In this document: in pieces, positions 15,657 to 37,197 of the stretch
Numbering within the stretch: position 1 is the first letter of the stretch
How the letters are laid out: each line of letters opens with the position of its first letter
Source of the DNA: Vicinamibacterales bacterium
GTDB lineage: Bacteria > Acidobacteriota > Vicinamibacteria > Vicinamibacterales > UBA2999
DNA: 64,000 nt
Direction: 5' to 3'
Assembly (NCBI GenBank): GCA_965249205.1
Contig: CBDFLL010000005.1
Coordinates: 1,027,045-1,091,044 of the forward strand
Position numbers and translations under genes: made by a program
The notes under the pieces: generated by a model
What the model was told of the DNA's origin: nothing
Database searches by the model: none
What the model saw: the letters and a program-made list of their open reading frames with translations, nothing else

Positions 15657-15705
15657 TGCTTATTGTCACACATATCTGTTTGATTGTCAAGGTCTAGCCA
15701 TGATG

Positions 15706-17321: not shown

Positions 17322-17334
17322 ACGCCTGCCCTCC

Positions 17335-21275: not shown

Positions 21276-24200
21276 CAGGCCACCCCGTGCACCGCCAGCA
21301 CGCCGGGAATCCGGCGCACGACCGCCTCTGCGGCCCGCCGACCGTCAATGTGGGTGTGCAGGTGGACGACGATGGGCGCCCCCAGACCCGCCGCGCCGGC
21401 CATCCCTGCCCCGGCCGTCTCCATGTGCCTGGACGCCACCGCGAACTGCGCCCGCGCGTTCTCGAGCTGGGCGCCCACCATCGTGGCCACGCCTTGGCCC
21501 TGCTGGCGGGTCAGCACCTCTTCCTCGCCGTGGAGCCACGCGGGCGTCCCGAACGGACTGAACTGCCGGAGGCCGCCCGTCCCGTCCGCGAACTGGTGCC
21601 CGCCCAGGGCCTCGTCGGCCCGATGCGCGTCGCCCGGGTTCCGCGCCAGCCAGTTCGCCTCCCACGCCTCCCGCGTGCGGAAATTCGACGGGGACAACCG
21701 GTCGTTGCCCTCCCGGCCCGGATCGATCATGCCCGTCAGCACCGGCGTGACCGGGATCACGATCGGCGTCGCCATCTCGTCCTTCATGGCGCCAATCGCG
21801 AGCGCCATCTGCCCAAAGTCCCAGACGCCCGTCTCGCTGGCGTCTCGGATGAGGCCCTGCATCTGCACCACCGCCGGATGCGTGCTGCCCAGCGAGTCGG
21901 TCAGCGACTCGGCCTCGCGCAGAATGGTGCCCAGGTCGTAGGTGCTCCCGTCACTGGCCTTCCGAAATTCCGCAGCCATCCGATCGAGGGAGTCCGTGTT
22001 CGCGATCTTGGCCTGCATGATGTCGATCGTCCCCGTCAGCTCCTCGAACGTCCCGCGTCCCGTCTCGGCCAGCGCGTCGAGGCCCGGCACCGTCTCCTTC
22101 TTGATGGTGGTCGTGATCTCGTCAATGACCTCCTGGACCGCCGCGCCGCCCTGCTGCTCCGCCTGCCAGAGCCGGTTGACGACGTCGAGGGCGTCATCCG
22201 CGCTCGCGCCGGCGGCGATGTACGCATCGCGGATGGCAATCACCGTCGCCGCCCCGATCTCGTTGCCCTTCCACGCGCCCTGAATCGCCTGCTGCACCTC
22301 GGCCATCTGCGCCGGGTTCAGCTCGGCGAGGAGACCCTGGCGGAAGCGGCCAGCCACCTGTCGGCCTGCCAGCTCGGCGGCAGACGGGCCACCGAGACTG
22401 AAGAGCTTGCCGACAAGCTGACCGATGACCGGTCCAATCAGCGGGATCGCCATCCCGGCCGCGTCGCCGAGCACCTTGCCGAGGCCTTTGCTGAGGAACC
22501 CCGTGTCCGCGGTCATCCTCGTGCTCAATCCCTCGGACAAGGACGTCCCGAGCCGGTCGCCCGCCTGCACGCCGAGCGACTGGGTCGCCCCGAGGAACCC
22601 GCCGCCGCCTTCCAGCGCCCGCGCGAACGTCTGGCCGATCTGCTTCCCGAAGCCCGCGAACGACTCGCCCATGCCGGACAGAAACCCGTCGGCCGCCGCG
22701 GTCCCAGCCTCGGTCCCAGCCGTGGTCGCCGCGGCTGGCAGATCCTGCAGCGTGCCGATGAACCCCCTCAGCGCGTTCTGCGAGTTCGACGTGCCGCCGG
22801 TGAAACGGTCGAAGCTCGTGTCGAGGGCGTCGACGGCCATCGCCGCTTCGATGCCGAGTTGCGGGAGGGGCTGCAGCGTGCCGATGAACCCCATCAGCGC
22901 GTTCCGCGAGTTCGACGTGCCGCCGGTGAAACGGTCGACGCTCGTGTCGAGGGCGTCGACGGCGGCGGTCGAGCCTTCCACCGAGGCAGCGAAGTCGTCA
23001 TTCGTTTTGGTGGCCCGCATCGAGGCCACCGCGGCGTCCCAGATGGCTTTCTGCGAGGCCTCGATGGCCGCCTTGATGGCCGCCGTCTCCTCTCGGATGG
23101 CTGTGACTTGCTCCTCCCGGTCGGCGAGGAGTTGCCGGTTCTCTGCGATCTCTCGCTGTTTGGCGCGGACCACGTTGTCGTAGTTGCGGGAGAGTGTGGG
23201 GAGCGCCTCGATCTCGGCCTCGAGGCGGGCGATCTCGGCCGGCGCGTTGCGGACGGCAGCCGCGGCGGCGGCGTTCGCGGCGGTGAGCGCGGCCTCCTCG
23301 TCGCGCAGCGCGGCGGTGAGGTGCTGCTTCATCCTCGTGGCGCGAGCACCCGTGTTGCTGATATTCGCGATGCGCTCGCTGAGGCCGGCGATCCGCGCTT
23401 CGACGCTGGCGACCTCATTCCGCGCTGTGGCCCACTGGAACACCTTCCAGGCGGCCCACATCCCGGCGATCGCGATGCCGACGGGGCCGGCGGCCAGGGT
23501 GAGGGCGCGGAGGCTGCCGCCGAGCAGGCCGACGCCCGCGGCGGCGGCGGGGGCCGCGGTGCCCGCCGCCGCCATGGCCGTGGTCGTGCCCGCCAGCGCA
23601 CCGCTCAGCGTCCCGAGCGAGGTCACCGTCAGCCCGGCCAGGCTGATCAGCGTCCCGAGCCCGATCAGGACCGGTGCGGTGGCCGCCATGAGCACGCCCA
23701 CCGCCAACGCCGTGGCACGCACCGGTTGCGGGAGGTCGGCGAACCAGTGCGCGGCTCGAGCCAGCTGGTCCACCAGCGGGCCTGACGCGGTCAGGAGCTG
23801 GTTGAGGCTGGGCAGCAACGACGTCCCCACCGTGATCGCGACATCCCTGAGTCGGCCCCACAGGATCTTGGCTTGGGACTCGAACGTCGCGTACCGCTGC
23901 GCAGCCTCCGTCGCGAGCGCCGTGTTGTCTTCGAACGCCTGTGTGCCGATCTGGAGGGACTGTGTGAGGACCTCGCCAGCGCCCCCGAGCGACAGAAACG
24001 ACTTGATCAACCGCTGGTCGGTGAAGTTGAGGGCCTCAAGCGTGGCGGTCGCCGTGATGCCCTGCTCGCCGATCCCGGCCGTGAACGCGGCAAAGGCGGC
24101 GCCGGCGTCCTGCTCGAACGCTGACGCGAACTCGCGGGCGGACAGACCGGCGGTGCTCGCAAAGACGTGCAGCTTATCGCCACCACGTGAGACGGCTTCG

Positions 24201-24913
24201 GTCATCCCGAGGAGGACCTTCTGCACGGCGGTGCCGCCGGCTTCCGCCTGGACGCCGACGCTGGACATGGCGGCCCCGATCGCGAGGATCTGCGCCTCGG
24301 ACAGGCCGGCGATCTCGCCGGCGCCGGCGATCCGCAGGCCGAAGTCCACGATCTCGGATTCCGTCGTGGCCAGGTTGTTGCCGAGGTCAACGATCGTCGA
24401 CCCGAGGCGGTCGAACTCGGTTTGCGGGAGCCCGGTGATGTTGGCGAGGCGAGCCAGGGCGGTGGCCGCCTGGTCGGACGAGAGATTCGTCGTGACACCG
24501 AGGTCGGCCATCGTGCGCGTGAACCCGAGGATGTGCTCGGTCTCGATGCCGAGCTGCCCGGCGGACTCGCCGATCGTGTTGAGCTCGTTGACGCTGACCG
24601 GGATCGCCTTCGACATCTCCCGGAAGCCGGTCGACAACGCGGCGAATTCTCCCTCGGTCGCGTTCACGGTCTTCCGGACGCCGGCGAACGAGGATTCAAA
24701 GTCCATGGCCGCCTTCACGGCCCCGACCCCCATCGCGCCGACCGCGGCCGAGAGGGGCAGCATCGCCCGACCCGCCGCGGACGTCTGTTGCCCCAGTTCG
24801 TTGAGGCGCTTGCCGGTGGTGGTGAGTCTGGTGGAGGCGCGCGTCAGCGCCGGCGTGAGGGTGTCCTCAAGCAGCAGGTATCCCTTGAGCGTGCCGATGC
24901 TGACCGTGCTCAT
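21275..24913 (-). CDS. Phage tail tape measure protein (TIGR01760-like); ~1210 aa from MSTVSIGTLKGY
   Basis: The N-terminal region (LNELGQQTSAAGRAMLPLSAAVGAMGVGAVKAAMDFESSFAGVRKTV...EFAALSTGFREMSKAIPVSVNELNTIGESAGQLG) is the conserved tape measure core. Long alpha-helical Ala-rich body with internal repeats. Confidence 0.85.
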   Translation of the reverse strand: MSTVSIGTLKGYLLLEDTLTPALTRASTRLTTTGKRLNELGQQTSAAGRAMLPLSAAVGAMGVGAVKAAMDFESSFAGVRKTVNATEGEFAALSTGFREMSKAIPVSVNELNTIGESAGQLGIETEHILGFTRTMADLGVTTNLSSDQAATALARLANITGLPQTEFDRLGSTIVDLGNNLATTESEIVDFGLRIAGAGEIAGLSEAQILAIGAAMSSVGVQAEAGGTAVQKVLLGMTEAVSRGGDKLHVFASTAGLSAREFASAFEQDAGAAFAAFTAGIGEQGITATATLEALNFTDQRLIKSFLSLGGAGEVLTQSLQIGTQAFEDNTALATEAAQRYATFESQAKILWGRLRDVAITVGTSLLPSLNQLLTASGPLVDQLARAAHWFADLPQPVRATALAVGVLMAATAPVLIGLGTLISLAGLTVTSLGTLSGALAGTTTAMAAAGTAAPAAAAGVGLLGGSLRALTLAAGPVGIAIAGMWAAWKVFQWATARNEVASVEARIAGLSERIANISNTGARATRMKQHLTAALRDEEAALTAANAAAAAAVRNAPAEIARLEAEIEALPTLSRNYDNVVRAKQREIAENRQLLADREEQVTAIREETAAIKAAIEASQKAIWDAAVASMRATKTNDDFAASVEGSTAAVDALDTSVDRFTGGTSNSRNALMGFIGTLQPLPQLGIEAAMAVDALDTSFDRFTGGTSNSQNALRGFIGTLQDLPAAATTAGTEAGTAAADGFLSGMGESFAGFGKQIGQTFARALEGGGGFLGATQSLGVQAGDRLGTSLSEGLSTRMTADTGFLSKGLGKVLGDAAGMAIPLIGPVIGQLVGKLFSLGGPSAAELAGRQVAGRFRQGLLAELNPAQMAEVQQAIQGAWKGNEIGAATVIAIRDAYIAAGASADDALDVVNRLWQAEQQGGAAVQEVIDEITTTIKKETVPGLDALAETGRGTFEELTGTIDIMQAKIANTDSLDRMAAEFRKASDGSTYDLGTILREAESLTDSLGSTHPAVVQMQGLIRDASETGVWDFGQMALAIGAMKDEMATPIVIPVTPVLTGMIDPGREGNDRLSPSNFRTREAWEANWLARNPGDAHRADEALGGHQFADGTGGLRQFSPFGTPAWLHGEEEVLTRQQGQGVATMVGAQLENARAQFAVASRHMETAGAGMAGAAGLGAPIVVHLHTHIDGRRAAEAVVRRIPGVLAVHGVA

Positions 24914-24926
24914 CTCGTCGTCGCGT

Positions 24927-25774
24927 CTACGTGGTCGGGCGCTCCGTGGCGCCCGGTGTCTGCTGCCCGAACGCCTCCGCAATGGCCCGCGCCCGCGCCT
25001 TGATTCCCTGCCACTGCGTCACCGCCGTCATCGGCGCCTTCGTCGACCTCGGTGCCTCGAACCGCAGTACGAAGTCGCTCAGCGAGTAGAGCGACTGTCC
25101 CGTGCGCCGCGCGAAGATGTTGTAGAGCGCCCGCTCAATCTGCGCCGCGCGCAGATCCGCCCGCACATCCCCAAACGGCTCGAGCTCGTCGTAGGCGCGC
25201 CACTCCCGAAACTCATGCACCGACAGCTGCCGCAGCCAGCGCCGCGCGCTCGGCTGCTTCAGTTCTTTCGCCGCCCGGTAGGCGAAGCGGAGATGCCCGC
25301 TTCGCCTGAGGCGTTTTTTACCTGCTCCTGGACCGGGGCAAACGTCTCCGCCACCGCCAGCAACCGCTCCGCCACTGCGTCCGGCGCGTCCTCGGCCGCC
25401 GCCTTCAGGCGCCGCACGACCGCCTGATGCACGAGCTGGACGACGTCCGTCTCCTGGCGGTTGAGTCTCATCGCGCGCTCCTGCAACAGCAGCAGGGGCT
25501 TGACGCTTTTCTGCTTCAGCCGCTCCAGATCCTTCGCCGTGAACAACGGCGCGCCCGTCTCGCCGTGGATCGCGCAGATCTGAATCAGCCGGACCATGGC
25601 GTTCTTCCGCGCCGTGGTGTTGTTCCCCTCCTCGAAGTCGATCGCCTCTTCCGCCGTCATCGCACGCAAGGTGACCGTGCCCCGCCACTCAGGCACGAAC
25701 ACCTCGTCGCGCTCGCAGTCCTCTGCGGCGAAGATCTCCTCCGCCGACAGGTGCTTCGTCTTCGCCTTCGCCAT
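24927..25774 (-). CDS. Tail assembly chaperone G-T fusion produced by a -1 programmed frameshift at A_AAA_AAC (top strand 25313-25319)
   Basis: The -1 frame downstream of GTA AAA AAC continues as KKRLRRSGHLRFAYRAAKELKQ...QWQGIKARARAIAEAFGQQTPGATERPTT to 24927 and overlaps the tape measure start. This is the conserved gpG/gpGT arrangement. Confidence 0.6.
25259..25774 (-). CDS. Phage tail assembly chaperone (gpG-like)
   Basis: MAKAKTKHLSAEEIFAAEDCERDEVFVPEWRGTVTLRAMTAEEAIDFEE... is acidic, ~170 aa, directly upstream of the tape measure gene. Ends shortly after a slippery heptamer. Confidence 0.65.
   Translation of the reverse strand: MAKAKTKHLSAEEIFAAEDCERDEVFVPEWRGTVTLRAMTAEEAIDFEEGNNTTARKNAMVRLIQICAIHGETGAPLFTAKDLERLKQKSVKPLLLLQERAMRLNRQETDVVQLVHQAVVRRLKAAAEDAPDAVAERLLAVAETFAPVQEQVKNASGEAGISASPTGRRKN
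25313..25319 (-). promoter_or_regulatory. Programmed -1 ribosomal frameshift slippery heptamer A_AAA_AAC in the tail chaperone gene
   Basis: Minus-strand ...CAG GTA AAA AAC GCC... (top strand gtttttt). The X_XXY_YYZ heptamer sits ~18 codons before the G stop, with an open -1 frame of ~125 codons beyond it. Confidence 0.6.
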
Positions 25775-25808
25775 TCGACGCCCCCCGTGTGCCGTCCGTG
25801 CCACTGCC

Positions 25809-26267
25809 CTACGTGCCGATCAGCACCCCGTCGATCCACATCGGCCCGTCCGGCCGAATCGTGACGTCCGCGCTGATGGCGCCCTCGCGCACCGGCGACA
25901 CCTTCGCGATCGCCGTGATCGCGCCCGAGAAAATCCACTCGTCGTCGCCGGAGCTGCCGCCCGGCCCGCGCAGCCGCCACCCGTCGAACGCTTTGTCGGC
26001 CATCGACTGGTAGATCCCCGTCAGATGGTTGTGCGTAGGGTCGTCATGGATGAAGTTCAACCGGAACGTGAACTCCCCGCGCTGCAGCAAATTGCTGACA
26101 ACGTGCCGGTCAATCGTCGCGTTGTGCGGCGACGTCTCCGTCGCGGCCCGCGTCAGCTCCGGCCAGGTGATGTCGCCGTCGAGTTCGGCGATCGTGGTGA
26201 AGAGGGCCGGCGTGGCGTTCGGCGCGCGCGCGACCAGTGTGCCGTGTCCCGACTTGGCATCGCTCAT
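25809..26267 (-). CDS. Phage major tail (tail tube) protein
   Basis: 152 aa, immediately upstream of the G/GT chaperones. Size and position match siphovirus major tail proteins. Confidence 0.55.
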   Translation of the reverse strand: MSDAKSGHGTLVARAPNATPALFTTIAELDGDITWPELTRAATETSPHNATIDRHVVSNLLQRGEFTFRLNFIHDDPTHNHLTGIYQSMADKAFDGWRLRGPGGSSGDDEWIFSGAITAIAKVSPVREGAISADVTIRPDGPMWIDGVLIGT

Positions 26268-26294
26268 GACTACGTTCTCCTTGTGAACCGTTCC

Positions 26295-26708
26295 CTACGT
26301 GTCGCTCAGCTCGAGGTTCCGTATCTGCAACGCGGCGTAGGCCGCCAGCGCCATCCCGCGCGCCGCCGCGTGCGTCTTCGCGCGGGCCGTAATCTGCGCG
26401 CCCGGGTGCTGATAGCCCGGCGCCGGCGCCGCGTTGTGCGTGCGATCCGGGGCCGTCCCGCCGGTCTCGATCACCTGCAGGTACGGCCCGTCTCCATCCG
26501 GCACCCTCGCCTGCGTCGACGCGAAGAGGGAGGTCCCGAACGTCCCGACGCCCTGGGTCGCCAGCCGCGTCACGATCTCCTGGATGAAGGTCGTCGACGG
26601 CCGCTTGACCGCGAGGATGTTGAACTTGAACATCAGTCGCCCATTGCCATCGAGGCCCGCATCAAACGGCTCCTGCCCGACGTCGATGTCCCGGTACCAC
26701 GCCATCAC
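26295..26708 (-). CDS. Phage tail terminator / tail completion-like protein
   Basis: 137 aa, between the HK97 gp10-like adaptor and the major tail protein. Confidence 0.35.
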   Translation of the reverse strand: MMAWYRDIDVGQEPFDAGLDGNGRLMFKFNILAVKRPSTTFIQEIVTRLATQGVGTFGTSLFASTQARVPDGDGPYLQVIETGGTAPDRTHNAAPAPGYQHPGAQITARAKTHAAARGMALAAYAALQIRNLELSDT

Positions 26709-27058
26709 CCCGTCAGCGGGTTCAGGTCGATCCGTCTCACGATCCGGGTCGCCAGATGCGGCGCCGACTCGAAGATCACCGCCTCGATGAACTTCGCCTG
26801 CCCCGTGGGGTGCTGCGCCTCCAGGTCTTCATGGACCGCCACCGCGTACGGCGCCGCCGGCCCGCCCGCGACGATCGCCGTCACGATGCGCCGGCCGCGC
26901 CGGTGCGGCCCTTCGACGTGAATCGAGCCGCGTAGGTTGCCGGTGTCCACCGGCGTCAGGCGCTTCGCTTCCGTGGCCTCGATCTCCGTTTCCTGCGCCA
27001 GGGCCAGCGCCACCGCATCCGGGATCTCCGCCGCCAGCCGATCCAGCGTGCGTCGCAT
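26705..27058 (-). CDS. Phage head-tail adaptor, HK97 gp10 family
   Basis: MRRTLDRLAAEIPDAVALALAQETEIEATEAKRLTPVDTGNLRGSIHVEGPH... carries the conserved TGNLRxSI motif of HK97 gp10-family proteins. The longer listed ORF (to 27376) is an Arg-rich out-of-frame extension. Confidence 0.6.
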   Translation of the reverse strand: MRRTLDRLAAEIPDAVALALAQETEIEATEAKRLTPVDTGNLRGSIHVEGPHRRGRRIVTAIVAGGPAAPYAVAVHEDLEAQHPTGQAKFIEAVIFESAPHLATRIVRRIDLNPLTG

Positions 27059-27089
27059 CGCGCCCACGCCCTGCACTCGCGGCATCGCG

Positions 27090-28295
27090 CTACCCGGCCA
27101 CCGCCGCCACCCGCGTCCGCTCCCCCAGCTGGACCGCCTGCGGATAGAGCGCGGTCTCCAGCGCCTCTGTGAACGCCGCCCCGATCGCCGGCCACCGGTA
27201 CTGCGGCCGTGACACCAGCGCCCGCCCACGCCCCGCGTAGTCCGCGCGCAGCGCCCGGTCCCGATAGAGCCGGTCGAGCGCCGCGATCGTGGCCTGCCGA
27301 TCGGGAATCCCTCCGATGACGTTGATCTGGTGCGGCGTGCACGACGTCGTCGAGCACGGCACCGTGATCGCCGCATCCTCGGGCCATTCGCTCAGCGCCG
27401 CCCACTTCGGCACGACGCATGGAATCCCACAGGCCATCGCCTCCATCGTCGGGAGCGACCACCCCTCGTTCTGCGACGTCGAGAGCAACACGTCGAACAC
27501 GGGGTAGGTCGCCGCCATCGCCGCCTCGGTCGCGCCGTTCCGGTTCGTCAACCGCGGTTCGATGAGCCGATTCGCAATGCCGTAGTACTGCGCGAGCTGG
27601 CTCAGCGTGTACGCCTCGTCCCCGGTGGGCGCCGAATGCACGTAGAGCGCCGCATCCGTGATCCCGCGCGACTTGACCCACTCGGCGAAGTACTGCACCA
27701 GCAGGTCGAACCGCTTCCGCGTCTGATTCCGGTTCACCGTGCCGACAATGAACGTGTCCCGCGGCAGCCCACGATGCGTGAATACGCGATCGAGCCCCAG
27801 GCGCGCCCGCGCCGCCTCGCGGTCCCCCGGCTGGTACACGTCGACGTCGACGCCCAGCGGCACGACGGCCGCCGGCCCGGCGTACCCGCCCTGCCGCGCC
27901 TCGTGCAAGCCGAATTGCGTCCAGAACACCGCGAGCGCCAGCCCGGACAGCCATTCCGCGCCCCGGCAGTTCTTCCCGTCCACGGCCAGGAACGCCACGA
28001 CGGGCGTGTCCCCCGCCCGCTGCCGGTACGCCGGCACGTTCCACGGGTCGTTCAGGAGGCACACGCAATCCGGGCCCAGCCGCTCGACCAGTTCGGCCGT
28101 ACGGCCCACGCCCAAGCTGTCACCCCCGGAGGCCGCCGGGTAGATGGGGTACGGGTAATCGTGCGGGTCGCCGCGATAGTTGATGCCGAGCACATGCACG
28201 TCCCACGTGCGCGCCAGCACGTCGAGGACGCCATGCGTCACGCGCGCGAAGCCCGAATGCACCCCCGCGTCCCCAATCCAGAGCAATCGCCTCAT
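27090..28295 (-). CDS. Glycosyltransferase, GT-B fold (family 4-like), within the phage morphogenesis operon
   Basis: MRRLLWIGDAGVHSGFARVTHGVLDVL... N-terminal Rossmann half plus a C-terminal half with ...QNEGWSLPTMEAMACGIPCVV (the EX7E-type GT4 donor-binding motif). Start overlaps the stop of the upstream GT-A gene. Confidence 0.7.
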   Translation of the reverse strand: MRRLLWIGDAGVHSGFARVTHGVLDVLARTWDVHVLGINYRGDPHDYPYPIYPAASGGDSLGVGRTAELVERLGPDCVCLLNDPWNVPAYRQRAGDTPVVAFLAVDGKNCRGAEWLSGLALAVFWTQFGLHEARQGGYAGPAAVVPLGVDVDVYQPGDREAARARLGLDRVFTHRGLPRDTFIVGTVNRNQTRKRFDLLVQYFAEWVKSRGITDAALYVHSAPTGDEAYTLSQLAQYYGIANRLIEPRLTNRNGATEAAMAATYPVFDVLLSTSQNEGWSLPTMEAMACGIPCVVPKWAALSEWPEDAAITVPCSTTSCTPHQINVIGGIPDRQATIAALDRLYRDRALRADYAGRGRALVSRPQYRWPAIGAAFTEALETALYPQAVQLGERTRVAAVAG

Positions 28296-29113
28296 GCCCT
28301 CACCACCTCGGCGACCCGGTTCACATACGACCAGTCGCGGCCTGGCCACGAGTCGAACGTGTGCGTCACCGCACGCGGCTGAATCACACTCGACCGTCCG
28401 GTGTGCTGCACGAAACTCGGCGCCGACGCCAGAAAGAACCGCAGCGTCGGGTAGCGCGCCGCCGACCACCGGTGTATCGCGAGGTCATAGCAGGCATCAC
28501 GCCCAACACCGTCGTCCCCGAGATAGCGCGGGTGGTCGAACAGCCACTCCGCCAGCGACCGTGCATCCGCATGCCTGACGGCGAATGCCTGCGTCCCATA
28601 GAACGCCGACACCGGGTAATCCCATGACGTCCCGCCGCGCGTCACCACGTCCAGGATCTGCTGGTAGGCCGCGCCGAACGCATACACGCGCCGGTCGTCG
28701 CGCGCATGCGCATCGAGCCACGCCCCGACGCTGTCAAGAAACCATCCGCACACGTCGATGTCATCCTCGAGGAACAGCACCCACCGGGCATCCGTCCCGG
28801 CCCCGACTAGCAACGCCGTGGCCACGTTCTCGTTCGGCGTGCGCCGCTGCCCGTCTCCCGGGCGATGCACCGTGATCACGCTCTCGTCACTGGGCTGCCG
28901 CCACACGTGATGACGCCCATCCCGATACGGGTGCAACACGATCGCCGCATCCGGCCACGCCTCAGATCCCCCTGAATCCACGATGTGCAGCCCGTGCAGG
29001 CGCGGTGACGCGAGCACGCCCGCCCGCGCCAGATTGTCCAGCGTGGCCTCCAGATAGTTCTGTGCCTTCGGCTGCCGGTCTACGGTCACTACAACGACGG
29101 CGATGTCCCTCAT
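28292..29113 (-). CDS. Glycosyltransferase-like protein, GT-A fold candidate (start at MRDIAVVVVTVDRQP)
   Basis: IAVVVVTVDR...NYLEATLDNL...HIVDSGG resembles the N-terminal nucleotide-sugar-binding segment of GT-A (family 2/25-like) enzymes. About 273 aa. Confidence 0.45.
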   Translation of the reverse strand: MRDIAVVVVTVDRQPKAQNYLEATLDNLARAGVLASPRLHGLHIVDSGGSEAWPDAAIVLHPYRDGRHHVWRQPSDESVITVHRPGDGQRRTPNENVATALLVGAGTDARWVLFLEDDIDVCGWFLDSVGAWLDAHARDDRRVYAFGAAYQQILDVVTRGGTSWDYPVSAFYGTQAFAVRHADARSLAEWLFDHPRYLGDDGVGRDACYDLAIHRWSAARYPTLRFFLASAPSFVQHTGRSSVIQPRAVTHTFDSWPGRDWSYVNRVAEVVRA

Positions 29114-29229
29114 GTCGCGGCCTCCCCGCAGCGGTGGACACTCGCGGTCCCCTCGTCCTTGGTCGCTCATTCGATCACGAGCGACCCCTCCGGTGGCGCT
29201 GCGACAGGTCGCCGGGATTCGCGGTGCCG

Positions 29230-29808
29230 TCATCGCCAGAACACCTGCACGTTCTGCCCGTACCACCACGCGTGCGGAGCGGCATTCAACCACCGCCGTG
29301 CCACGATGCGCGACGTCATTTCGTCCCACCGATACCCACGCGCCGCGAGTTTGCTGCGCCAGTACGTGTGCGGCTGCTCGTTCAGGTGCCCCGCGCCGCC
29401 TTGCCCCGGCACTGCCGCCGTGAACAGGAGCTTGCCACCTGCTTTCGTCAGCCGCGCCAGCGTGTCGCAGAGCGTCTCCGCCGCCGCAGCGGGTAGGTGC
29501 TCGGCCACTTCCCAGCACAGCACCATCTCGGCCGGCTCAAGGCTTTCGCCCCATGGCTTCGTGAGGTCTCCCTGCAACAGGACGCCGTGCGAGGGCACGC
29601 TCGGCGCCGGCAACGCCACATCCACCCCAAACGCGAGGACCCCCGCGGCGGCGGACATCCGCACCAGGTGTCCGTCGCCGCAGCCCACATCGATCAACGA
29701 CTCCGGGTAGCCGAACTGCTCGAACACCAACGCCAGGCAGCGGCCACTCTCCCGCTCCGTTCGGGCGGCCTGCCGGTACGCGAGTCGCTGCAAGGGCGTC
29801 GTCATGCG
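29230..29808 (-). CDS. Class I SAM-dependent methyltransferase (start at MTTPLQRLAY)
   Basis: LIDVGCGDGHLVRMSAAAGVLAFGVDVA (motif I GxGxG), ...MVLCWEVAEHLP..., ...AGGKLLFTA. About 193 aa. Confidence 0.7.
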   Translation of the reverse strand, partial: RMTTPLQRLAYRQAARTERESGRCLALVFEQFGYPESLIDVGCGDGHLVRMSAAAGVLAFGVDVALPAPSVPSHGVLLQGDLTKPWGESLEPAEMVLCWEVAEHLPAAAAETLCDTLARLTKAGGKLLFTAAVPGQGGAGHLNEQPHTYWRSKLAARGYRWDEMTSRIVARRWLNAAPHAWWYGQNVQVFWR

Positions 29809-30453
29809 GCTGTTTCCAACCCGAACACGTCGTGCAGTTCCGGTGACGTCGTTGACACCATCCGCCGATGCCGCGCACGCAACGCCGCCAAACAGGCGCG
29901 GTCGCCTGGCACGTGCGGACGCGACGCCGTATCCCATGACAGCCCGGCATGGCCGCCCTTGAGCGAGATCCCCGCGAGCACCACTGCCGCCGCACCACCG
30001 GCGAACGCCAAGCACGCCGCAAACACCCCGGTCGACACCCGCTGGTCCCTCGGTCCGGCGCCCAGCGCCTCTCCGCACGCGGCCTGCACGATGGCATTCC
30101 GGTCGGCCGTCGACACCCCGATCAGCGTGTCGTAGTCCACCTCGACGTCCGCCAGCGTCGCGCGCACCCGCTCGAGCGGGCCATCCGTCAGATCCGCCCA
30201 GACCTGCCGCACGCGCAACCCGTGCCACCGGTCGATCGTCTCGCGCTGCTGCCGAGAGCGTCGCCCGCAGAAATGCGCGGTCGTCGCCAGCACATCCACC
30301 TGCTGCCCGCCGTCCCGCGCCACGTAGGCGCCGCCGTTGGCCGCGATGATCACGGCACTCGGCCGCACCACGACCGAGGGGGCCGATCCCACCACGGAGA
30401 CGACCTTCCCCCCGAACACCCGGAGGCCATGCGTCGCGACCTCGGTCAACATC
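29802..30453 (-). CDS. Hypothetical Rossmann-like protein (possible nucleotide-sugar-dependent transferase); overlaps the methyltransferase start by 7 nt
   Basis: MMLTEVATHGLRVFGGKVVSVVGSAPSVVVRPSAVIIAANGGAYVARDGG... is a GxGxS-type beta-alpha-beta N-terminus. No confident family assignment. Confidence 0.3.
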
Positions 30454-30787
30454 ATTGGAAATACACCGTCTCGTGATGGGGGCCGTTCTCGTCGGACGCC
30501 TCCTTCACGGCAATCGGGAGCGGCTGCGTCGGCACGAAACGCGCCGGCAGCGTGAACCGGTCCTTGACCGTCACGCCGAACGCGCCCGCCAACGTCACCT
30601 GCACCGTGCTCACCGTCTCGTGCCCCTGCTGATCGCGCACCGTCATGACCTTGCCGCTCACGCGCGCCGCCCGTGCCGCGCCCGCGGCATACGTCGGGTT
30701 GCCGAAGCCGTCCACGCTCACACACGACTCCACCGTCACGGTGTCGGTAAAGAGGTCCGCCAGGTCGTCAACAATCGGATCCGCCAT
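30452..30787 (-). CDS. Phage head-tail connector/head closure-like protein
   Basis: 111 aa, between the capsid-proximal genes and the tail-proximal adaptor. Translationally coupled. Confidence 0.35.
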   Translation of the reverse strand: MADPIVDDLADLFTDTVTVESCVSVDGFGNPTYAAGAARAARVSGKVMTVRDQQGHETVSTVQVTLAGAFGVTVKDRFTLPARFVPTQPLPIAVKEASDENGPHHETVYFQ

Positions 30788-30791
30788 CCGC

Positions 30792-31153
30792 CTACACCAC
30801 CCGGAACACCGCTGCTCGTGGGCCCGCCTTCAAGAGCATCTCGGCCCCGCGCGTCCGCAATCCCTTCAGATGCGCCCGATAGGCCGAGTCTGGCGAATCG
30901 CCCCACGCCAGCCGCAGGTCCTCGACCTGCTTGCTCACCAGGCCCTTCTTCTGCGCCAGGAGCACCTCACGCACCGCGCCGCCGCGAGGTACTTGACGTG
31001 GTCCCCCGCGCCGGCGCGGGTCCGTTCTTCCGCAATGACGGCGACGATCTCCTCGTCCTGCAAGGCGGCCTTCGTGACGTCGCGGTCCCCAATGAAGAAC
31101 CGCACCCAATCCCGCTCCGACGCCAGCGACGCGTCGTAGGTCGCCGCCATCAA
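30792..31153 (-). pseudogene. Phage head-tail adaptor-like protein carrying a +1 frameshift (~30975-30990)
   Basis: N-terminal frame MMAATYDASLASERDWVRFFIGDRDVTKAALQDEEIVAVIAEERTRAGAGDHVKYLAAAR. It continues only in another frame as VREVLLAQKKGLVSKQVEDLRLAWGDSPDSAYRAHLKGLRTRGAEMLLKAGPRAAVFRVV. The shift lies in a gcggcggcgcgg tract. Confidence 0.4.
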
Positions 31154-31156
31154 CGC

Positions 31157-31321
31157 CTACACCGACTTCTTCGGCGCTCTCGCCTTCACCGGCTCGACCC
31201 GGTCGCCGAGCGCCTCGGCGTCCTTTGGTGTCAGGTCGACTTCCACGCCGGGGACGCATCGGACGGTCTGACCGTCGACGCGCCACCCGAACTTCCCTTT
31301 CACCACGCGATACGTCGGCAT
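31157..31321 (-). CDS. Small hypothetical protein (54 aa)
   Basis: MPTYRVVKGKFGWRVDGQTVRCVPGVEVDLTPKDAEALGDRVEPVKARAPKKSV has good composition. Sits between the capsid and adaptor genes. Confidence 0.3.
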   Translation of the reverse strand: MPTYRVVKGKFGWRVDGQTVRCVPGVEVDLTPKDAEALGDRVEPVKARAPKKSV

Positions 31322-31355
31322 GTGTCCCCGTGCCCTCTCTGGCCCGCGTGACCGC

Positions 31356-32645
31356 CTAGACCGTCGTGTGGCCAACGCAGATGCCCGACTTCCCGTCGTA
31401 GTCGTCGCGCACGCGCGGCACGATGATCGCCATGACCATCCAGAACAGGACGAAGCCGTCCGTCGACGTCCACGGCACGACCACGGGCCGCTGCCCGTCG
31501 ATAATGTCGATGACATCCGACGTCATCTGCACCATCGCGGTCCGGTTGGTCGGGAGCAGGTCCGCCGTCTTGACCATCAGGGTCCGGCCGCCCACCTGAA
31601 TCTCCTGGAGCCGCTGGAGGATGGTCTTGTCCGAGTGCGCCTTGAAGTCCTCGTTCAACTTGTTGCCGTACGAGGTCGGCACGTAGAGGTGGTAGGGCCC
31701 GTACCGCTTGTCCGCCTGCAACGTATCGATCATGCCCTGCACGTCGCCCAGGATGTCCTCGCCGTCATGCCCCGCCGCATCCCACGCCTCGTTCGAGCTA
31801 TAGGCGTACGCATTCACGTTCGGCGCATTCAGGAGTCCCGGCGTGCTACTGCCAGCCACCGTCACCGCAGCCCCGTTGATCACCGAGTCCTCGATCGCTT
31901 CATTGACCCGCCGCGTCGCCTGCTCGACGAGCGCCGTGTCGATCGGCGTGCCGTTCCGTTCCGACGCGGACAGCAGTCTCCGGTTGACGCTGAAATCCTC
32001 CGTCGTCAGATAGATCGGGATCTTCCGGACATCGCGGCCCTGCAACTGGTTCTCCCCGCGCGCCCGTGGCAGCATCGTGCGCTGCGCCCCGCCGGCTTCC
32101 GACACGACCTCCCACTGGAGCTCCATGACGCTCATCGGATTCGCCAAGGGGAACGTCAGCCCGGCCGCCATCACGTCGGCGGCGATGGTCAGCCGGTCCA
32201 GCCCAACGCGGACCACCGCCTGGTCAACGAGCTTCTGCGCATCCTCTTCGAGCGGCGAGTTCGCCCGCATCTCGGCGACACTCAACCCGCTGGTCAACAG
32301 CGCGCGCATATGCGCTGGCGCCCGGTCGGCCAGGTATCGAGTGGCGGCCGGCGTGAGGCCCGGCACCGCAACCAGGAGCCCCATGTCTGCCTCACCGCAC
32401 AGCACCATGGCGCCCATCGCGGCCGCGGCCAGCGCCGGCCCGCGCCACCGATGACCACACGCACGCTGTAGGCCCGCCCTCATTCGCGCGACCGCGTCAC
32501 GGAGGGCCATCGCCCCTCTTGTCACCGCGTTGGCCAACGTCCCGCGCCAGGCCTGGACGTTGACCAGCTTCGTTGGCATCGCGGCGACCGCGATCAGCAT
32601 CGCCACCACACACGGCAGCACGGTACAGGTGCGTTCTCTCGTCAT
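31356..32645 (-). CDS. Phage major capsid protein, HK97-fold, encapsulin/Linocin-M18-like family (true start probably internal)
   Basis: The segment IPIYLTTEDFSVNRRLLSASERNGTPIDTALVEQATRRVNEAIEDSVINGAA parallels the encapsulin region PFTLSRRELDDVERGAKDLDLDAVEEAARKLAAAEDRAIFHG. Located between the protease/scaffold-decoration genes and the head-tail connectors. Confidence 0.6.
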   Translation of the reverse strand: MTRERTCTVLPCVVAMLIAVAAMPTKLVNVQAWRGTLANAVTRGAMALRDAVARMRAGLQRACGHRWRGPALAAAAMGAMVLCGEADMGLLVAVPGLTPAATRYLADRAPAHMRALLTSGLSVAEMRANSPLEEDAQKLVDQAVVRVGLDRLTIAADVMAAGLTFPLANPMSVMELQWEVVSEAGGAQRTMLPRARGENQLQGRDVRKIPIYLTTEDFSVNRRLLSASERNGTPIDTALVEQATRRVNEAIEDSVINGAAVTVAGSSTPGLLNAPNVNAYAYSSNEAWDAAGHDGEDILGDVQGMIDTLQADKRYGPYHLYVPTSYGNKLNEDFKAHSDKTILQRLQEIQVGGRTLMVKTADLLPTNRTAMVQMTSDVIDIIDGQRPVVVPWTSTDGFVLFWMVMAIIVPRVRDDYDGKSGICVGHTTV

Positions 32646-32682
32646 GATTCGGTTCTCCTCAACCTCTGTCCGTTGGCGTGGC

Positions 32683-33114
32683 CTAGACCACTTCGACGCG
32701 CATCCGCGCGTCTCCCGGGCCGGCCGAGTTGTCCTTCGCCTCGATCGCCTTGGCGACGATCGTGCCCGTGCTGTGCGCGATCAGCCGGCCCGCCCCGTCA
32801 TGCTCAAGCGCGGCACCGTCCGCGAGGTTCTGCCCCGAGGGCACAAACGCCAAGAACGTCGTGCCCGGCACGCCGACACCGGCCTTGACGAGATCGCCGT
32901 CCGCATACGCGTCGTCGAGGCCCTTGTTCATCTCGGACTGGTCGAGCGCGATCGTCGAGCCCGCCACGCCGGCCGAGGCGTGTTTGATGTATTTCCCGGC
33001 ACTCCGATCGAGGAAGTGCCCGGGCGTGATCGCCCCGCTGGCGTGCAGGTCGTTGACCTCCGTGACCGGCCCGCCCAGGTGAATCGTGCGCGGATGGAAT
33101 TTCGTGATTGCCAT
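32683..33114 (-). CDS. Phage head decoration-like protein (DUF2190-like)
   Basis: 143 aa, Gly/Ala-rich beta protein immediately upstream of the major capsid gene. Confidence 0.35.
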   Translation of the reverse strand: MAITKFHPRTIHLGGPVTEVNDLHASGAITPGHFLDRSAGKYIKHASAGVAGSTIALDQSEMNKGLDDAYADGDLVKAGVGVPGTTFLAFVPSGQNLADGAALEHDGAGRLIAHSTGTIVAKAIEAKDNSAGPGDARMRVEVV

Positions 33115-33170
33115 GCTCTCGTCTCCTTCGCTGCCGTACGGTTCGCGCGGCCGGTGAGTGGGTCGGCCTC

Positions 33171-34877
33171 CTACGCCGTCCGCTGCTCGAGCGCCGCCTG
33201 GTACGGGTCCGGCGGCGTCGCGTACACGTCATCCTCCGCCGCGGCGCTCCGCGGCACGCCTCGCCCGCTGAAGTTCGGCTGGACCACCTCGGCCTTGGCG
33301 ACCCGCGCCATCCGCTCCAGGTCGTCGACGTCCATTTCGGTCAGCTCCGCTTCGCTGTACTCCGTCTGCGCCGTCTTGAGCACCGATACCAGCGCCGTCT
33401 TCCGCTCGGCACGCTGCGCCTTGTCCCGCGCCACCAGATCCTTGATGGACTTCGGGGCCGTCTTCAGGTACTCCTCCTCGGACTGCTCACTCGACGCCGC
33501 CGGACTCGGCTGTGCGCCCTGCGCCGGGGCGGCCGGTGGATCCGCCACCTTCTTATCTGCCGCCTCGAGCGCCGTCAGCTGCTCGTCTGTCAACGACTCC
33601 AGGAACGCCTGATGCTCCGCCGAAAACGTGACTGCCGCCTCGAGCGTCGTCAGCTGCTCGTCCGTCAACGACTCCAGGAACGCCTGATGCTCCGCCGAAA
33701 ACGTGTGCTGCTTGCTCGCGATGAGCGCCGAAATGCGCTGCGACTTCTCCATGACTGCTCCTCCTGCCGTTCGTTGTGTGTTGCCGCCACAGCCGCAGGC
33801 GGCCTTCGGCGCTGCTGGTGCCGCACTCACAGACACGAACGCCGTCTCTGCGCGCACCTCGGTTTTGTCGTCCTGCAGGGCCACCGTGCCCTTCGCCTTG
33901 AGACTGAACGACCGCTGGTACATCCGCAGCCCGCCGCCACCGTCCGCGAACGCGTGGTAGATGACGCGCTCGGCGTCATCGACCGCGAGGATGCCGATAA
34001 ATCCCGGCTCGGCGTCGCGCAACGCAATCTCCAAGGCCCCGCGCAGGTCCGTGTCCGTCAGCGCTGCGCGCAACCCCAGCGAGTCCAGCCCTTCGACCGT
34101 GGCCGCGTAGGTCAGTCGGTCACTCTCCGACACCGTGCCGCGACCAAACAACGTCTTGAGACTGTGCTTCAGCGCATCGAGCGTCGACTGGTTCATTGCG
34201 TTCCCTTCTCTGGCCGCCACCCGTGGTGCCCCGCACCCCATTTCAATCGAGCACGCGCCCACCTCGCCCTTCCGCAGCATCGCGAGGTGATCCGGGCCGA
34301 CGTGGCGCCACACGTAGCGATACGCCTGGCCGTCGTGCTCTCCTTCGTGTTCCTCGAGATCGAGCAACACGCCCACGGAGACTTCCACTTGTTCGTCGTC
34401 GAGGAGCCGCTCGACGAGCTCTTTCGCGTCGCCGCCCAACTCCTTGGCGCGCGTCTCGTCAATCCACGCTTCCACCGTCAGCCGGCGGTCATCCAGCGCG
34501 GCACTGAAGATTGAGCCCACCGAGCCTGCTTCAAGGACCGCTGGATCGTTTGCGCTGACGTGCTCGCCGTGGCGTGTGGGATGGCCGACCATGACCGGCC
34601 GACCGTTCCAGGTGCGCGGGTGATGGCCGAATTCAGAGGCGAGCGCCAGCTCGGGACCGCTCGAATTGGCCGGACGCACCACCCCCTCGACGAGGGCGAT
34701 AACCGGCACGACCAGATGCGGCGCCCCGCGGAACTCCGCCGTGCGGATCTGACCGGTCTTGCCGGCGAGATGGCGCACCGTCGGCACGGCGGCCGCCTGG
34801 CAGGCGCGCAGTTGCTGTGTCCTCACCGCTGCCCATGGTAGGGGCGCGGCCCAGACACCGCATATTTTGGTTAACAC
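33171..34877 (-). CDS. Phage prohead protease / scaffolding fusion protein with an internal 25-aa tandem repeat
   Basis: 568 aa. The N-terminal globular domain precedes the capsid gene as prohead proteases do. The C-terminal half is a highly charged alpha-helical region (EEEYLKTAPKSIKDLVARDKAQRAERKTALVSVLKTAQTEY...) typical of scaffolds. TFSAEHQAFLESLTDEQLT(T/A)LEAA is repeated twice. Confidence 0.45.
   Translation of the reverse strand: MLTKICGVWAAPLPWAAVRTQQLRACQAAAVPTVRHLAGKTGQIRTAEFRGAPHLVVPVIALVEGVVRPANSSGPELALASEFGHHPRTWNGRPVMVGHPTRHGEHVSANDPAVLEAGSVGSIFSAALDDRRLTVEAWIDETRAKELGGDAKELVERLLDDEQVEVSVGVLLDLEEHEGEHDGQAYRYVWRHVGPDHLAMLRKGEVGACSIEMGCGAPRVAAREGNAMNQSTLDALKHSLKTLFGRGTVSESDRLTYAATVEGLDSLGLRAALTDTDLRGALEIALRDAEPGFIGILAVDDAERVIYHAFADGGGGLRMYQRSFSLKAKGTVALQDDKTEVRAETAFVSVSAAPAAPKAACGCGGNTQRTAGGAVMEKSQRISALIASKQHTFSAEHQAFLESLTDEQLTTLEAAVTFSAEHQAFLESLTDEQLTALEAADKKVADPPAAPAQGAQPSPAASSEQSEEEYLKTAPKSIKDLVARDKAQRAERKTALVSVLKTAQTEYSEAELTEMDVDDLERMARVAKAEVVQPNFSGRGVPRSAAAEDDVYATPPDPYQAALEQRTA
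33557..33706 (-). repeat. Perfect-frame 75-bp tandem duplication (x2) inside the protease/scaffold gene
   Basis: ctgccgcctcgagcg(c/t)cgtcagctgctcgtc(t/c)gtcaacgactccaggaacgcctgatgctccgccgaaaacgtg occurs twice in tandem. Confidence 0.8.
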
Positions 34878-35086: not shown

Positions 35087-36139
35087 GTAGACTCGTGCTT
35101 ATCCGGTTGTTTCAGCAAGCCACCACCGGTAGTGTATCGGCGTGGCGCGCCCGTCGTTTCCGAAGAATCTCCGGGAGTTTCAGCGGCAATTTGCGACCGC
35201 CGAGGCCTGTCAGGACTACTTGGCGGCGTGCCGCTGGCCGGACGGCTTTGTGTGTCCCCGGTGCCGGCACGCGCGCGGCTATCGCCTGACCACACACCGG
35301 CGCTGGCAATGTGCGGCGTGCCGGTATCAGGTGTCGCTGACCGCCGGGACGATTCTCCACAACACGAAGACGCCGCTCCTGGTGTGGTTCTGGGCGGCCT
35401 ATTTGACGGTTACCGACAAGCGGGGCCTCTCGGCGCTCCTGCTGCAGCGGCAGTTGGGCCTGCGGCGGTACGAAACGGCGTGGCTGCTGTTGCACAAGCT
35501 GCGGCGCGCGATGGTGAACGCGGGGCGGGAGCCCTTATACGGCGACGTGGAGATCGATGACACCTGGGTGGGCGCGCCCCAGGCCGGCCTGCGCGGCAGT
35601 CGCCAACTCAAGGGGCGGAAAGCCGCGCTGGTGCTGGTGGCGGTGGAACGACGCGGGGATCGGTCGGGTCGGGTCCGCATGTCCGTGATCCCGAACTTCA
35701 AACAATCGACGATGCTCGCGTTCGTCACTCACCACATTGCGCCGGGGGCGACGGTCTACACCGACGGGCTGAAAAGTTTCGATGGGCTCCAGGCCGCTGA
35801 CGTGAGACACGTCGCCCGCCCGCAACCGATCCGGAGCGCCCTGCACAGGGGGGTGCCCTCCGTCGTGCCTTTGGCCGACCGCGTCATCGGCAATTGCCAA
35901 CAGTGGTTGATTGGCACGCACCACGGCGTCAGCAAGGCGCAACTACAGGTCTACCTCGATGAGTTCGTGTTTCGGCACAATCGGCGGCGGCACCCGATGG
36001 CCGCCTTTCAGACCCTGCTGGGCCTGGGGACCGGACGGACGCCCACGCCCGCCCGACGGATTCGCGGCGCGCAGGACGTGCGCCCCCCAGGCTGATCGCA
36101 AGATATAGGGGTTAGCTGAAACAACCGGATAAGCACGAC
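35087..36139 (+). mobile_element. IS1595-family insertion sequence, copy 1 of a tandem pair
   Basis: 24-27-bp terminal inverted repeats GACTCGTGCTTATCCGGTTGTTTCAGC / GCTGAAACAACCGGATAAGCACGA. Encodes a 317-aa transposase. Confidence 0.8.
35142..36095 (+). CDS. IS1595-family transposase (N-terminal zinc ribbon plus DDE domain)
   Basis: CPRCRHARGYRLTTHRRWQCAACRYQ zinc-ribbon, then DDE core ...VEIDDTWVG...VYTDGLKSF...YLDEFVFRHNRR, typical of ISXO2/IS1595 transposases. Confidence 0.85.
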   Translation: MARPSFPKNLREFQRQFATAEACQDYLAACRWPDGFVCPRCRHARGYRLTTHRRWQCAACRYQVSLTAGTILHNTKTPLLVWFWAAYLTVTDKRGLSALLLQRQLGLRRYETAWLLLHKLRRAMVNAGREPLYGDVEIDDTWVGAPQAGLRGSRQLKGRKAALVLVAVERRGDRSGRVRMSVIPNFKQSTMLAFVTHHIAPGATVYTDGLKSFDGLQAADVRHVARPQPIRSALHRGVPSVVPLADRVIGNCQQWLIGTHHGVSKAQLQVYLDEFVFRHNRRRHPMAAFQTLLGLGTGRTPTPARRIRGAQDVRPPG

Positions 36140-36143
36140 GCGA

Positions 36144-37197
36144 CTCGTGCTTATCCGGTTGTTTCAGCAAGCCACCACCGGTAGTGTATCGGCGTGGCGC
36201 GCCCGTCGTTTCCGAAGAATCTCCGGGAGTTTCAGCGGCAATTTGCGACCGCCGAGGCCTGTCAGGACTACTTGGCGGCGTGCCGCTGGCCGGACGGCTT
36301 TGTGTGTCCCCGGTGCCGGCACGCGCGCGGCTATCGCCTGACCACACACCGGCGCTGGCAATGTGCGGCGTGCCGGTATCAGGTGTCGCTGACCGCCGGG
36401 ACGATTCTCCACAACACGAAGACGCCGCTCCTGGTGTGGTTCTGGGCGGCCTATTTGACGGTTACCGACAAGCGGGGCCTCTCGGCGCTCCTGCTGCAGC
36501 GGCAGTTGGGCCTGCGGCGGTACGAAACGGCGTGGCTGCTGTTGCACAAGCTGCGGCGCGCGATGGTGAACGCGGGGCGGGAGCCCTTGTACGGCGACGT
36601 GGAGATCGATGACACCTGGGTGGGCGCGCCCCAGGCCGGCCTGCGCGGCAGTCGCCAACTCAAGGGGCGGAAAGCCGCGCTGGTGCTGGTGGCGGTGGAA
36701 CGACGCGGGGATCGGTCGGGTCGGGTCCGCATGTCCGTGATCCCGAACTTCAAACAATCGACGATGCTCGCGTTCGTCACTCACCACATTGCGCCGGGGG
36801 CGACGGTCTACACCGACGGGCTGAAAAGTTTCGATGGGCTCCAGGCCGCTGACGTGAGACACGTCGCCCGCCCGCAACCGATCCGGAGCGCCCTGCACAG
36901 GGGGGTGCCCTCCGTCGTGCCTTTGGCCGACCGCGTCATCGGCAATTGCCAACAGTGGTTGATTGGCACGCACCACGGCGTCAGCAAGGCGCAACTACAG
37001 GTCTACCTCGATGAGTTCGTGTTTCGGCACAATCGGCGGCGGCACCCGATGGCCGCCTTTCAGACCCTGCTGGGCCTGGGGACCGGACGGACGCCCACGC
37101 CCGCCCGACGGATTCGCGGCGCGCAGGACGTGCGCCCCCCAGGCTGATCGCAAGATATAGGGGTTAGCTGAAACAACCGGATAAGCACGAGTCGACT
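36144..37197 (+). mobile_element. IS1595-family insertion sequence, copy 2 (head-to-tail with copy 1, separated by ~4 bp)
   Basis: Same inverted repeats. Near-identical to copy 1; I saw only two substitutions. Confidence 0.8.
36194..37147 (+). CDS. IS1595-family transposase (second copy)
   Basis: Protein identical to 35142..36095. Confidence 0.85.
   Translation: MARPSFPKNLREFQRQFATAEACQDYLAACRWPDGFVCPRCRHARGYRLTTHRRWQCAACRYQVSLTAGTILHNTKTPLLVWFWAAYLTVTDKRGLSALLLQRQLGLRRYETAWLLLHKLRRAMVNAGREPLYGDVEIDDTWVGAPQAGLRGSRQLKGRKAALVLVAVERRGDRSGRVRMSVIPNFKQSTMLAFVTHHIAPGATVYTDGLKSFDGLQAADVRHVARPQPIRSALHRGVPSVVPLADRVIGNCQQWLIGTHHGVSKAQLQVYLDEFVFRHNRRRHPMAAFQTLLGLGTGRTPTPARRIRGAQDVRPPG

Follow-up and report, generated by a model that had tools for sequence, protein, structure and literature searches.

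The DNA analysed here, called the window, is a stretch of 64,000 nucleotides on contig CBDFLL010000005.1 of a Vicinamibacterales bacterium. The window is G+C-rich (about 0.65-0.70) and carries a siphophage morphogenesis module on the minus strand, from about 15,000 to 34,900. Within this module, four intact co-oriented minus-strand open reading frames (ORFs) were located at 27090..30455, between the connector gene and the HK97-gp10-like neck gene. This arrangement had been proposed in a first-pass annotation, and the structural identity of both flanks was confirmed by Pfam and PHROG matches. Judging from the encoded families and their position, and by analogy with characterised phages, glycosylation of virion proteins is the best reading of this four-gene cassette, one to which we give about an even chance. 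The genes are, in order of transcription:

29802..30455, minus strand, gene D, 217 aa, predicted Maf/DUF115/GT42 sialyltransferase-like fold, undescribed family (fold model)
29230..29805, minus strand, class I S-adenosylmethionine (SAM)-dependent methyltransferase, 191 aa (Methyltransf_23)
28292..29113, minus strand, gene B, 273 aa, predicted GT-A fold, GT13-like, invariant EDD (fold model, family alignment)
27090..28295, minus strand, GT4-family (GT-B) glycosyltransferase, 401 aa (Pfam, phrog_2170, EX7E motif)

The cassette is embedded in the head-tail operon. A base-by-base check identified ATGA stop/start overlaps at connector/D (30452-30455), D/methyltransferase (29802-29805) and B/GT4 (28292-28295); the last had been placed exactly by the first-pass annotation, while its positions 29808 and 30453 for the other two were a few bases off. 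These three overlaps fit the translational coupling claimed there. The methyltransferase and gene B are separated by 116 nt, unless gene B starts at an alternative ATG at 29233, which would create a further ATGA overlap and a product of 313 aa. The start at 29113 is favoured by comparison with homologues, by the database copy P0008 and by a GGGGAGG Shine-Dalgarno sequence. The 116-nt gap contained an 8-10-bp hairpin of ordinary folding energy (z = -0.73), with no terminator-like T-run behind it. A possible start of the neck gene is located 4 nt past the GT4 stop. In a consensus scan of the coding strand from 24500 to 35200, neither a sigma-70-like promoter nor an intrinsic-terminator-like site was detected, which argues against the concern that the genes form a moron with its own promoter and terminator. 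The G+C content at third codon positions (GC3) was 0.81-0.91 in the cassette, 0.82-0.92 in the structural genes and 0.71-0.76 in the flanking host genes.

None of the four proteins displayed a convincing membrane segment or a match to Gtr-type families. The sole strongly hydrophobic stretch, in gene D, corresponds to a helix-strand of the Rossmann core in the predicted model. A defence-system reading was dropped; PADLOC gave just a weak match to the methyltransferase.

Enzymes encoded by the cassette

In the profile searches that had been suggested as a check, the GT4 protein and the methyltransferase passed the Pfam gathering cut-offs, and B and D were without Pfam match. The GT4 protein scored 36.0 bits for Glycos_transf_1 (cut-off 26.4) and 36.7 bits for Glyco_trans_1_4 (cut-off 27), matched phrog_2170 (1.9e-28) and carries the C-terminal EX7E motif as E277-GWSLPTM-E285, so that the original call was confirmed. 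Its closest full-length solved relative by sequence is B736L of chlorovirus PBCV-1. Among isolated phages it showed about 30% identity to proteins of S-CBS4, S-EIV1, TJE1 and few others, all matches being limited to cyanophage, Tetrasphaera, Microcystis and Pontimonas phages. A scan of GTDB genomes detected only distant generic glycosyltransferases, with at most 48% identity on short segments.

The class I SAM methyltransferase call was likewise upheld by Methyltransf_23 (36.5 bits against a cut-off of 27; 5e-9), and the protein is of the Methyltransf_23/11 type. Among solved structures it is closest to UbiG O-methyltransferases rather than to DNA methyltransferases, and it is accordingly described here as O-methyltransferase-like. 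Orthologues with 47-50% identity occupy the same position in three of the phage contigs treated below (L003, L005 and L007).

Gene B had been called GT-A-like, which agrees with its predicted model. The model is closest to GnT-I/POMGnT1 (GT13) and combines a GT-A fold with an invariant EDD as DxD-type metal/nucleotide-sugar motif. The similarity is one of predicted fold: identity to these GT13 N-acetylglucosaminyltransferases is only 15%, and unlike these the family of gene B is bacterial or phage-borne, about 250 aa long and without stem or membrane anchor. It comprises at least 162 homologues. The gene B product had no match in Pfam (including GNT-I), NCBIfam or PDB sequences, and Pfam domains were absent from all 120 homologues listed.

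The fourth protein, first described as Rossmann-like and of unknown function, retained its fold and can now be assigned to an undescribed, Maf/DUF115/sialyltransferase-like family. A word-index search gave 7 relatives of gene D, and an exhaustive profile search gave 466 representative clusters (50% identity). The predicted model has a sialyltransferase-like Rossmann fold (GT-A variant 2). Its top structural match was the pterin pyrophosphokinase MptE, so a kinase-type activity may also be considered, and the fold search in BFVD yielded only DUF115/GT29-like proteins from uncultured phages and giant viruses, all of them weakly matched (TM about 0.5). No Pfam domain, PF01973 and CST-I included, was found over the D region in 130 members. 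Against all PDB sequences, the D-family profiles retrieved only Cst-I, Cst-II and Lst at marginal E-values (0.035-0.5), via an R-V-S-T-G-V...G-I segment; S141-T142-G143 of gene D aligns with T131-S132-G133 of Cst-II. In the alignment of 130 sequences (A5), S141 and D185 were invariant and G143, R179 and H181 nearly so, while T142 was invariant only in the alignment of 7 sequences (A1). H181 may be the counterpart of His188 in Cst-II. Unlike the Maf enzymes, which are flagellin nonulosonic-acid O-glycosyltransferases, and the GT42 sialyltransferases Cst-I and Cst-II, D has only about 200 aa and lacks the Maf C-terminal flagellin-binding domain.

D is fused to a class I methyltransferase in P0006 and P0007, and members elsewhere in the family are fused to polysaccharide pyruvyltransferase or GT2; these partners tie D to glycan chemistry. 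From fold model and fusions, gene D is probably a third sugar transferase. The families of genes B and D are both undescribed in Pfam, PHROGs and NCBIfam.

The same slot in related phages

A search for homologous glycosyltransferase-containing structural modules had been recommended, and such modules were found. Homologues of D and B were looked up and gene tables were drawn up for 10 kb on either side. In the independent metagenomic phage contigs L003/L004, L005/L006, L007, L091 and L092, the homologues were located between the capsid/connector genes and the gp10-like/terminator/tube genes. A scan of IMG/VR with a gene B profile gave 46 loci, with a contig G+C content of 0.31-0.66. In 32 of 44 loci, gene B was followed within 4 kb by a GT4 gene in the same orientation, in 19 of them directly adjacent. 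Neck or tail genes were detected downstream in 19 of 31 loci and a capsid gene upstream in 14 of 27; the remaining loci are more distant phages, with structural genes beyond the reach of the queries used. D (8/42) and the methyltransferase (7/42) were less frequent and mostly occurred together.

The content of the slot was analyzed with Pfam in the capsid-to-neck interval of 19 loci (146 ORFs), and 25 of the 28 families were listed. The most frequent were GT4 (20), Methyltransf_23/11 (9) and Methyltransf_24 (7), followed by the DegT sugar aminotransferase (2). Radical SAM, GNAT, sulfotransferase, GT2, GT32-like, CAP59-like and phosphoribosyltransferase families were also present, and the methyltransferases were of three kinds. 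No membrane, Gtr, Wzy, TET, thymidylate-synthase or DNA-methyltransferase family was among the 25 listed. The slot is therefore constant and its content variable, B and GT4 form the core pair, and the listed families comprise only soluble enzymes that build or tailor glycans. The cassette is not a one-off moron, as the GT-A/GT4 pair is found in the same capsid-to-neck slot of many independent viral contigs.

In L007, a single 885-aa product with a GT4 domain is encoded behind the methyltransferase, and homology to B lies immediately upstream of homology to GT4, apparently as a B-GT4 fusion. The slot of L091 (5834-12116) additionally contains a radical SAM protein, a Methyltransf_24 protein, a GT32-like transferase and a 766-aa GT4. 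That of L003 (8920-13479) contains a Methyltransf_24 protein and, upstream of D, a second Methyltransf_23 paralogue, which is the one fused to D in P0006 and P0007.

A related head module is found in the cultured Brevundimonas phage StAshley; it has no annotated glycosyltransferase or methyltransferase and leaves no space for the cassette between the capsid and tape-measure genes.

The morphogenesis module and its decay in the window

The module is transcribed in the order protease/scaffold, decoration, major capsid, two small head-completion genes, connector and cassette. These are followed by the HK97-gp10-like neck gene, tail terminator, tail tube, G/T-type chaperones, tape measure and distal tail/fibre genes. 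The following structural genes were annotated:

33171..34877, minus strand, protease/scaffold, final phage gene before the insertion sequence (IS) elements (phrog_760, phrog_530; DUF2213)
32683..33114, minus strand, head decoration protein, candidate acceptor (phrog_766, 8e-10)
31356..32384 (ORF to 32645), minus strand, major capsid protein, DUF6260/HK97-like, candidate acceptor (phrog_771, phrog_264)
30795..31153, minus strand, head-tail adaptor, frameshifted near 30970 (alignment to the 119-aa protein of L007)
30452..30787, minus strand, head-tail connector, 111 aa (phrog_3881, 1.4e-7)
26705..27085, minus strand, HK97-gp10-like neck/tail-completion protein, 126 aa, ATG at 27085 (PF04883, 7e-7; phrog_5)
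26295..26708, minus strand, tail terminator (PF12691, 9e-7; syntenic in relatives)
25809..26267, minus strand, tail tube, candidate acceptor (54% identical to tube genes in L005 and L092)
21275..24982, minus strand, tape measure (part of the morphogenesis module)

The major capsid protein is 46-54% identical to the capsids of cassette-bearing relatives and 37% identical to that of StAshley. Its ORF (31356-32645) extends about 87-125 codons upstream of the capsid-homologous part, and the true start is probably internal, near 32384. In L007, L091 and L092, a connector orthologue immediately precedes the cassette. The neck gene had been annotated as an adaptor at 26705..27058. Its HK97-gp10-like nature was verified, while a start at 27085 is likelier, since the orthologues in L004 and L139 have 126 aa rather than 117.

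The prophage copy in the window is a decayed, defective remnant. No portal or terminase homologue was detected anywhere in the window. The expected portal/terminase site is occupied by a 1052-bp IS in two tandem head-to-tail copies (100% direct repeat; 35090..37193, plus strand), which truncate the head end of the prophage and begin some 200 bp upstream of the protease/scaffold gene. Beyond them are an IS5-family element and then the host genes plsY and cinA, starting at 39269. The 1052-bp IS has a 317-aa ORF (phrog_25593) and no match in the plasmid collection. The IS5-family element (1305 bp) is present in four copies with 99-100% identity, at 13687-14991, 37970-39274, 59773-61077 (inverted) and 2215-5186. 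The last is itself split by another element with a 443-aa ORF at about 3172-4837. Two copies flank the prophage remnant in direct orientation, that at 13687-14991 marking its other end. The element is about 75% identical to sequences on Azospirillum and Skermanella plasmids.

The head-tail adaptor gene is split in two frames near 30970, residues 1-58 of the L007 protein aligning in frame -1 and residues 61-119 in frame -3, and its relatives are single proteins of 119-132 aa. It is either a pseudogene or the product of a sequencing error. Ahead of it, a 54-aa ORF (31157..31321) matches just the N-terminal 40 or so residues of relatives with 115-136 aa.

The metagenomic contig L139 is 92-96% identical to the window across 30987..19801. 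Missing from it are the methyltransferase and the first 240 or so nt of gene B (L139 1094-1434 compared with window 29897-28870), and its tape-measure gene differs by an indel of about 440 nt (window 24101-23661); the coverage of L139 is low (2.6x), and an assembly error is possible. The ratio of nonsynonymous to synonymous substitutions (dN/dS) between the window and L139 was 0.23-0.43 for D, B and GT4 and 0-0.41 for the structural genes. The values are close to each other, indicating that the cassette was under purifying selection for most of the divergence between the window and L139.

These data bear on whether the cassette is, in the window genome, an inert relic of a dead prophage, whatever its ancestral role. 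We consider this probable in view of the missing portal and terminase, the IS elements directly upstream of the protease/scaffold gene with host genes from 39269 onwards, the frameshifted adaptor and the losses in L139, although all four ORFs are intact and dN/dS against L139 is below 0.45. The glycan system is probably no longer used in this genome. Such an explanation concerns the present state and not the original mechanism, and is compatible with virion glycosylation. Expression together with the late structural genes, as first proposed, agrees with the operon embedding as far as the ancestral phage is concerned; it does not extend to the window prophage in its defective state. For the same reason, induction of this prophage is unlikely to work.

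Internal repeats were found in the protease/scaffold gene (75-nt tandem repeat, 81% identical, window 33532-33681) and in the tape-measure gene (93-nt repeat, 97% identical, 126-nt spacing, window 22745-22963). The distal end of the prophage carries a HicB-like antitoxin-type ORF (phrog_497; window 15032-15484) and a 121-aa ORF with weak SLATT/holin-like matches (window 17335-17700), near which ORF 16863..17321 had a weak CHAP-domain match below the cut-off. Rfam and tRNA scans of the window found nothing, and its housekeeping DNA gave matches at only 65-70%.

Proposed function and competing explanations

In the proposed mechanism, the cassette would be the glycan-building module of a siphophage lineage and would be transcribed by read-through of the late head-tail operon. 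Its three sugar transferases, all soluble and cytoplasmic, namely the GT13-like GT-A enzyme B, the GT4 enzyme that forms the core pair with it and the small Maf/sialyltransferase-like D, would add sugars stepwise from host nucleotide sugars directly onto one or more virion proteins before lysis. Capsid, decoration, tube or fibre proteins are the candidate acceptors. The O-methyltransferase would cap or tailor a sugar hydroxyl, and the route would involve neither a lipid carrier nor an oligosaccharyltransferase. We infer the virion protein as acceptor, the order of the steps and the donor sugars. The use of the capsid-to-neck slot in dozens of uncultured phages suggests sugar-coating of the particle.

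Virion glycosylation had already been the interpretation of the first-pass annotation, and it is in agreement with the enzymes, the GC3 values, the recurrence of the slot and the lack of an own promoter or terminator in the consensus scan. Glycosyltransferase and methyltransferase genes placed inside a structural operon, like virion glycosylation itself, are already on record in actinobacteriophages (PMC4351075; Freeman 2023, cited by PMC11600133 and PMC12363180).

Several observations weigh against virion glycosylation. The window copy is defective, and L139 is without the methyltransferase and the 5' end of B. Genes B and D had no tblastn match in 50,697 isolated phage genomes, including mycobacteriophages with proven glycosylation, and the likeness to those systems is therefore functional only. 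An acceptor signature was sought in capsid C-termini and loops, where nothing diagnostic emerged, and no Ser/Thr-rich tail distinguished the cassette-bearing relatives from the cassette-less StAshley. The promoter scan covered the sigma-70 consensus only. Furthermore, a B + GT4 pair is present in a bacterial chromosome outside any recognisable phage (L089/L090); thus, these enzymes are not intrinsically virion-specific.

If the cassette glycosylates virions, the trait would be far more widespread than the characterised cases: phages from numerous host groups would carry it, at a fixed and exchangeable position of their morphogenesis operon, and two sizeable unannotated families (B and D) would gain a function. 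Particle surface chemistry bears on phage stability, adsorption and immune clearance, and the intact metagenomic relatives with their clear catalytic motifs are testable candidates. A more far-reaching reading is possible, although we do not lean towards it: a broad, unrecognised lineage of tailed phages with non-actinobacterial hosts might carry a hypervariable 'glyco-island' at the head-tail junction that decorates virions with methylated O-glycans. Its core would be the GT13-like GT-A enzyme and the mini Maf/sialyltransferase-like protein, the latter maybe transferring a CMP-activated ulosonic acid. If so, this would be the first virion glycosylation system outside actinobacteriophages, and the variation in its content would stem from diversifying selection acting on the surface of the particle.

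In the main rival explanation, the target would be a glycan of the infected cell and not of the virion, either lipid-linked intermediates of lipopolysaccharide (LPS), exopolysaccharide (EPS) or capsule or an envelope glycoprotein; the effect could be masking of receptors against loss of progeny on debris, or phage exclusion. Polysaccharide loci typically contain GT4, GT-A and methyltransferase families, and there were weak NCBIfam matches to GT4s of EPS, LPS and MshA type. The chromosomal B + GT4 locus with its GT2, cellulase and AsnB genes and the fusions of D-family members to polysaccharide pyruvyltransferase and GT2 are also consistent with such a role. However, the genes are translationally coupled in the midst of the late head-tail operon, and no promoter of their own was detected. 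A flippase, polymerase, Gtr or other membrane component was lacking among the slot families listed for the 19 loci, and the position is kept across phages with a G+C content of 0.31-0.66 and hence across hosts with very different envelopes. Seroconversion modules (GtrABC, O-antigen acetyl- and glucosyl-transferases) are likewise prophage-borne and modify sugars. Their proteins are membrane-bound, encoded beside int/att and expressed in the lysogen. In contrast, the cassette proteins are soluble, without Gtr-type components, and encoded in a late operon that is silent in the lysogen. On balance, we regard a non-virion glycan as unlikely.

Sugar hypermodification of phage DNA (glycosylated 5-hydroxymethyl pyrimidines, as in T4 and in clusters associated with TET/ThyS) is very improbable: although phage GT-A and GT-B enzymes akin to LPS/teichoic-acid enzymes do glycosylate DNA and some of their clusters adjoin structural genes (bioRxiv 10.1101/2023.12.21.572611), no 5mYOX/TET, thymidylate-synthase-like hydroxymethylase or DNA methyltransferase was found in the phage part of the window, in the 10-kb gene tables drawn up for L003-L007, L091 and L092 or in the 25 listed slot families of 19 loci, the methyltransferase is UbiG-like and not a DNA methyltransferase, and the occurrence of sugar aminotransferase, sulfotransferase and pyruvyltransferase as partners speaks for tailoring of glycans.

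As far as we found, virion glycosylation has been shown experimentally in tailed phages only for few mycobacteriophages, where it alters antibody recognition. In Che8, Corndog and Myrna, capsid and tail-tube glycosylation has been reported (Freeman 2023, cited by PMC11600133, PMC12363180 and PMC11256854). In Corndog, gp35-38 encode an O-methyltransferase and three glycosyltransferases between portal and protease, the enzymes being produced during infection and absent from the virions (PMC4351075). In Che8-type phages, the glycosyltransferase genes are located at the right end of the genome (PMC11256854). The concept is thus known, and the enzymes and the slot described here differ from the characterised systems. 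Common to both are soluble phage-encoded glycosyltransferases together with an O-methyltransferase, and the Corndog set is also part of a structural operon. However, the slot here is at the connector/neck junction and not between portal and protease, and the lineage is a different one, with a DUF6260-type capsid and Brevundimonas phages as nearest cultured relatives. Homology to the characterised mycobacteriophage enzymes was not found by tblastn with B and D, and the phage matches of GT4 were to other groups.

A similar trio of enzyme classes in a head module is encoded by gp014-016 of Synechococcus phage S-CBS4 (GT4, 'galactosyl transferase' and SAM methyltransferase), located between portal and protease. 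Its gp014 is 30% identical over 96% of the window GT4, while slot and gene order differ. We dropped the view that this is the same cassette in favour of functional analogy, as gp013, gp015 and gp016 are not detectably homologous to D, B and the methyltransferase. To our knowledge, the S-CBS4 cluster is uncharacterised. In chlorovirus PBCV-1, B736L and A064R are capsid glycosylation enzymes, of which A064R combines two glycosyltransferase domains and a methyltransferase domain; unlike the phages considered here, PBCV-1 is a eukaryotic giant virus with atypical N-linked glycans, and the similarity is distant.

The chromosomal locus L089/L090 is located at 3193-9738 of an 804-kb, chromosome-sized contig, where a B homologue is arranged divergently beside a 548-aa GT4. 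Next to these are three paralogous proteins of about 185 aa with Pro/Thr-rich segments, small ORFs, a cellulase-family protein, a GT2 and an asparagine synthase (AsnB). This locus may represent a cellular glycoprotein system with the same enzyme pair.

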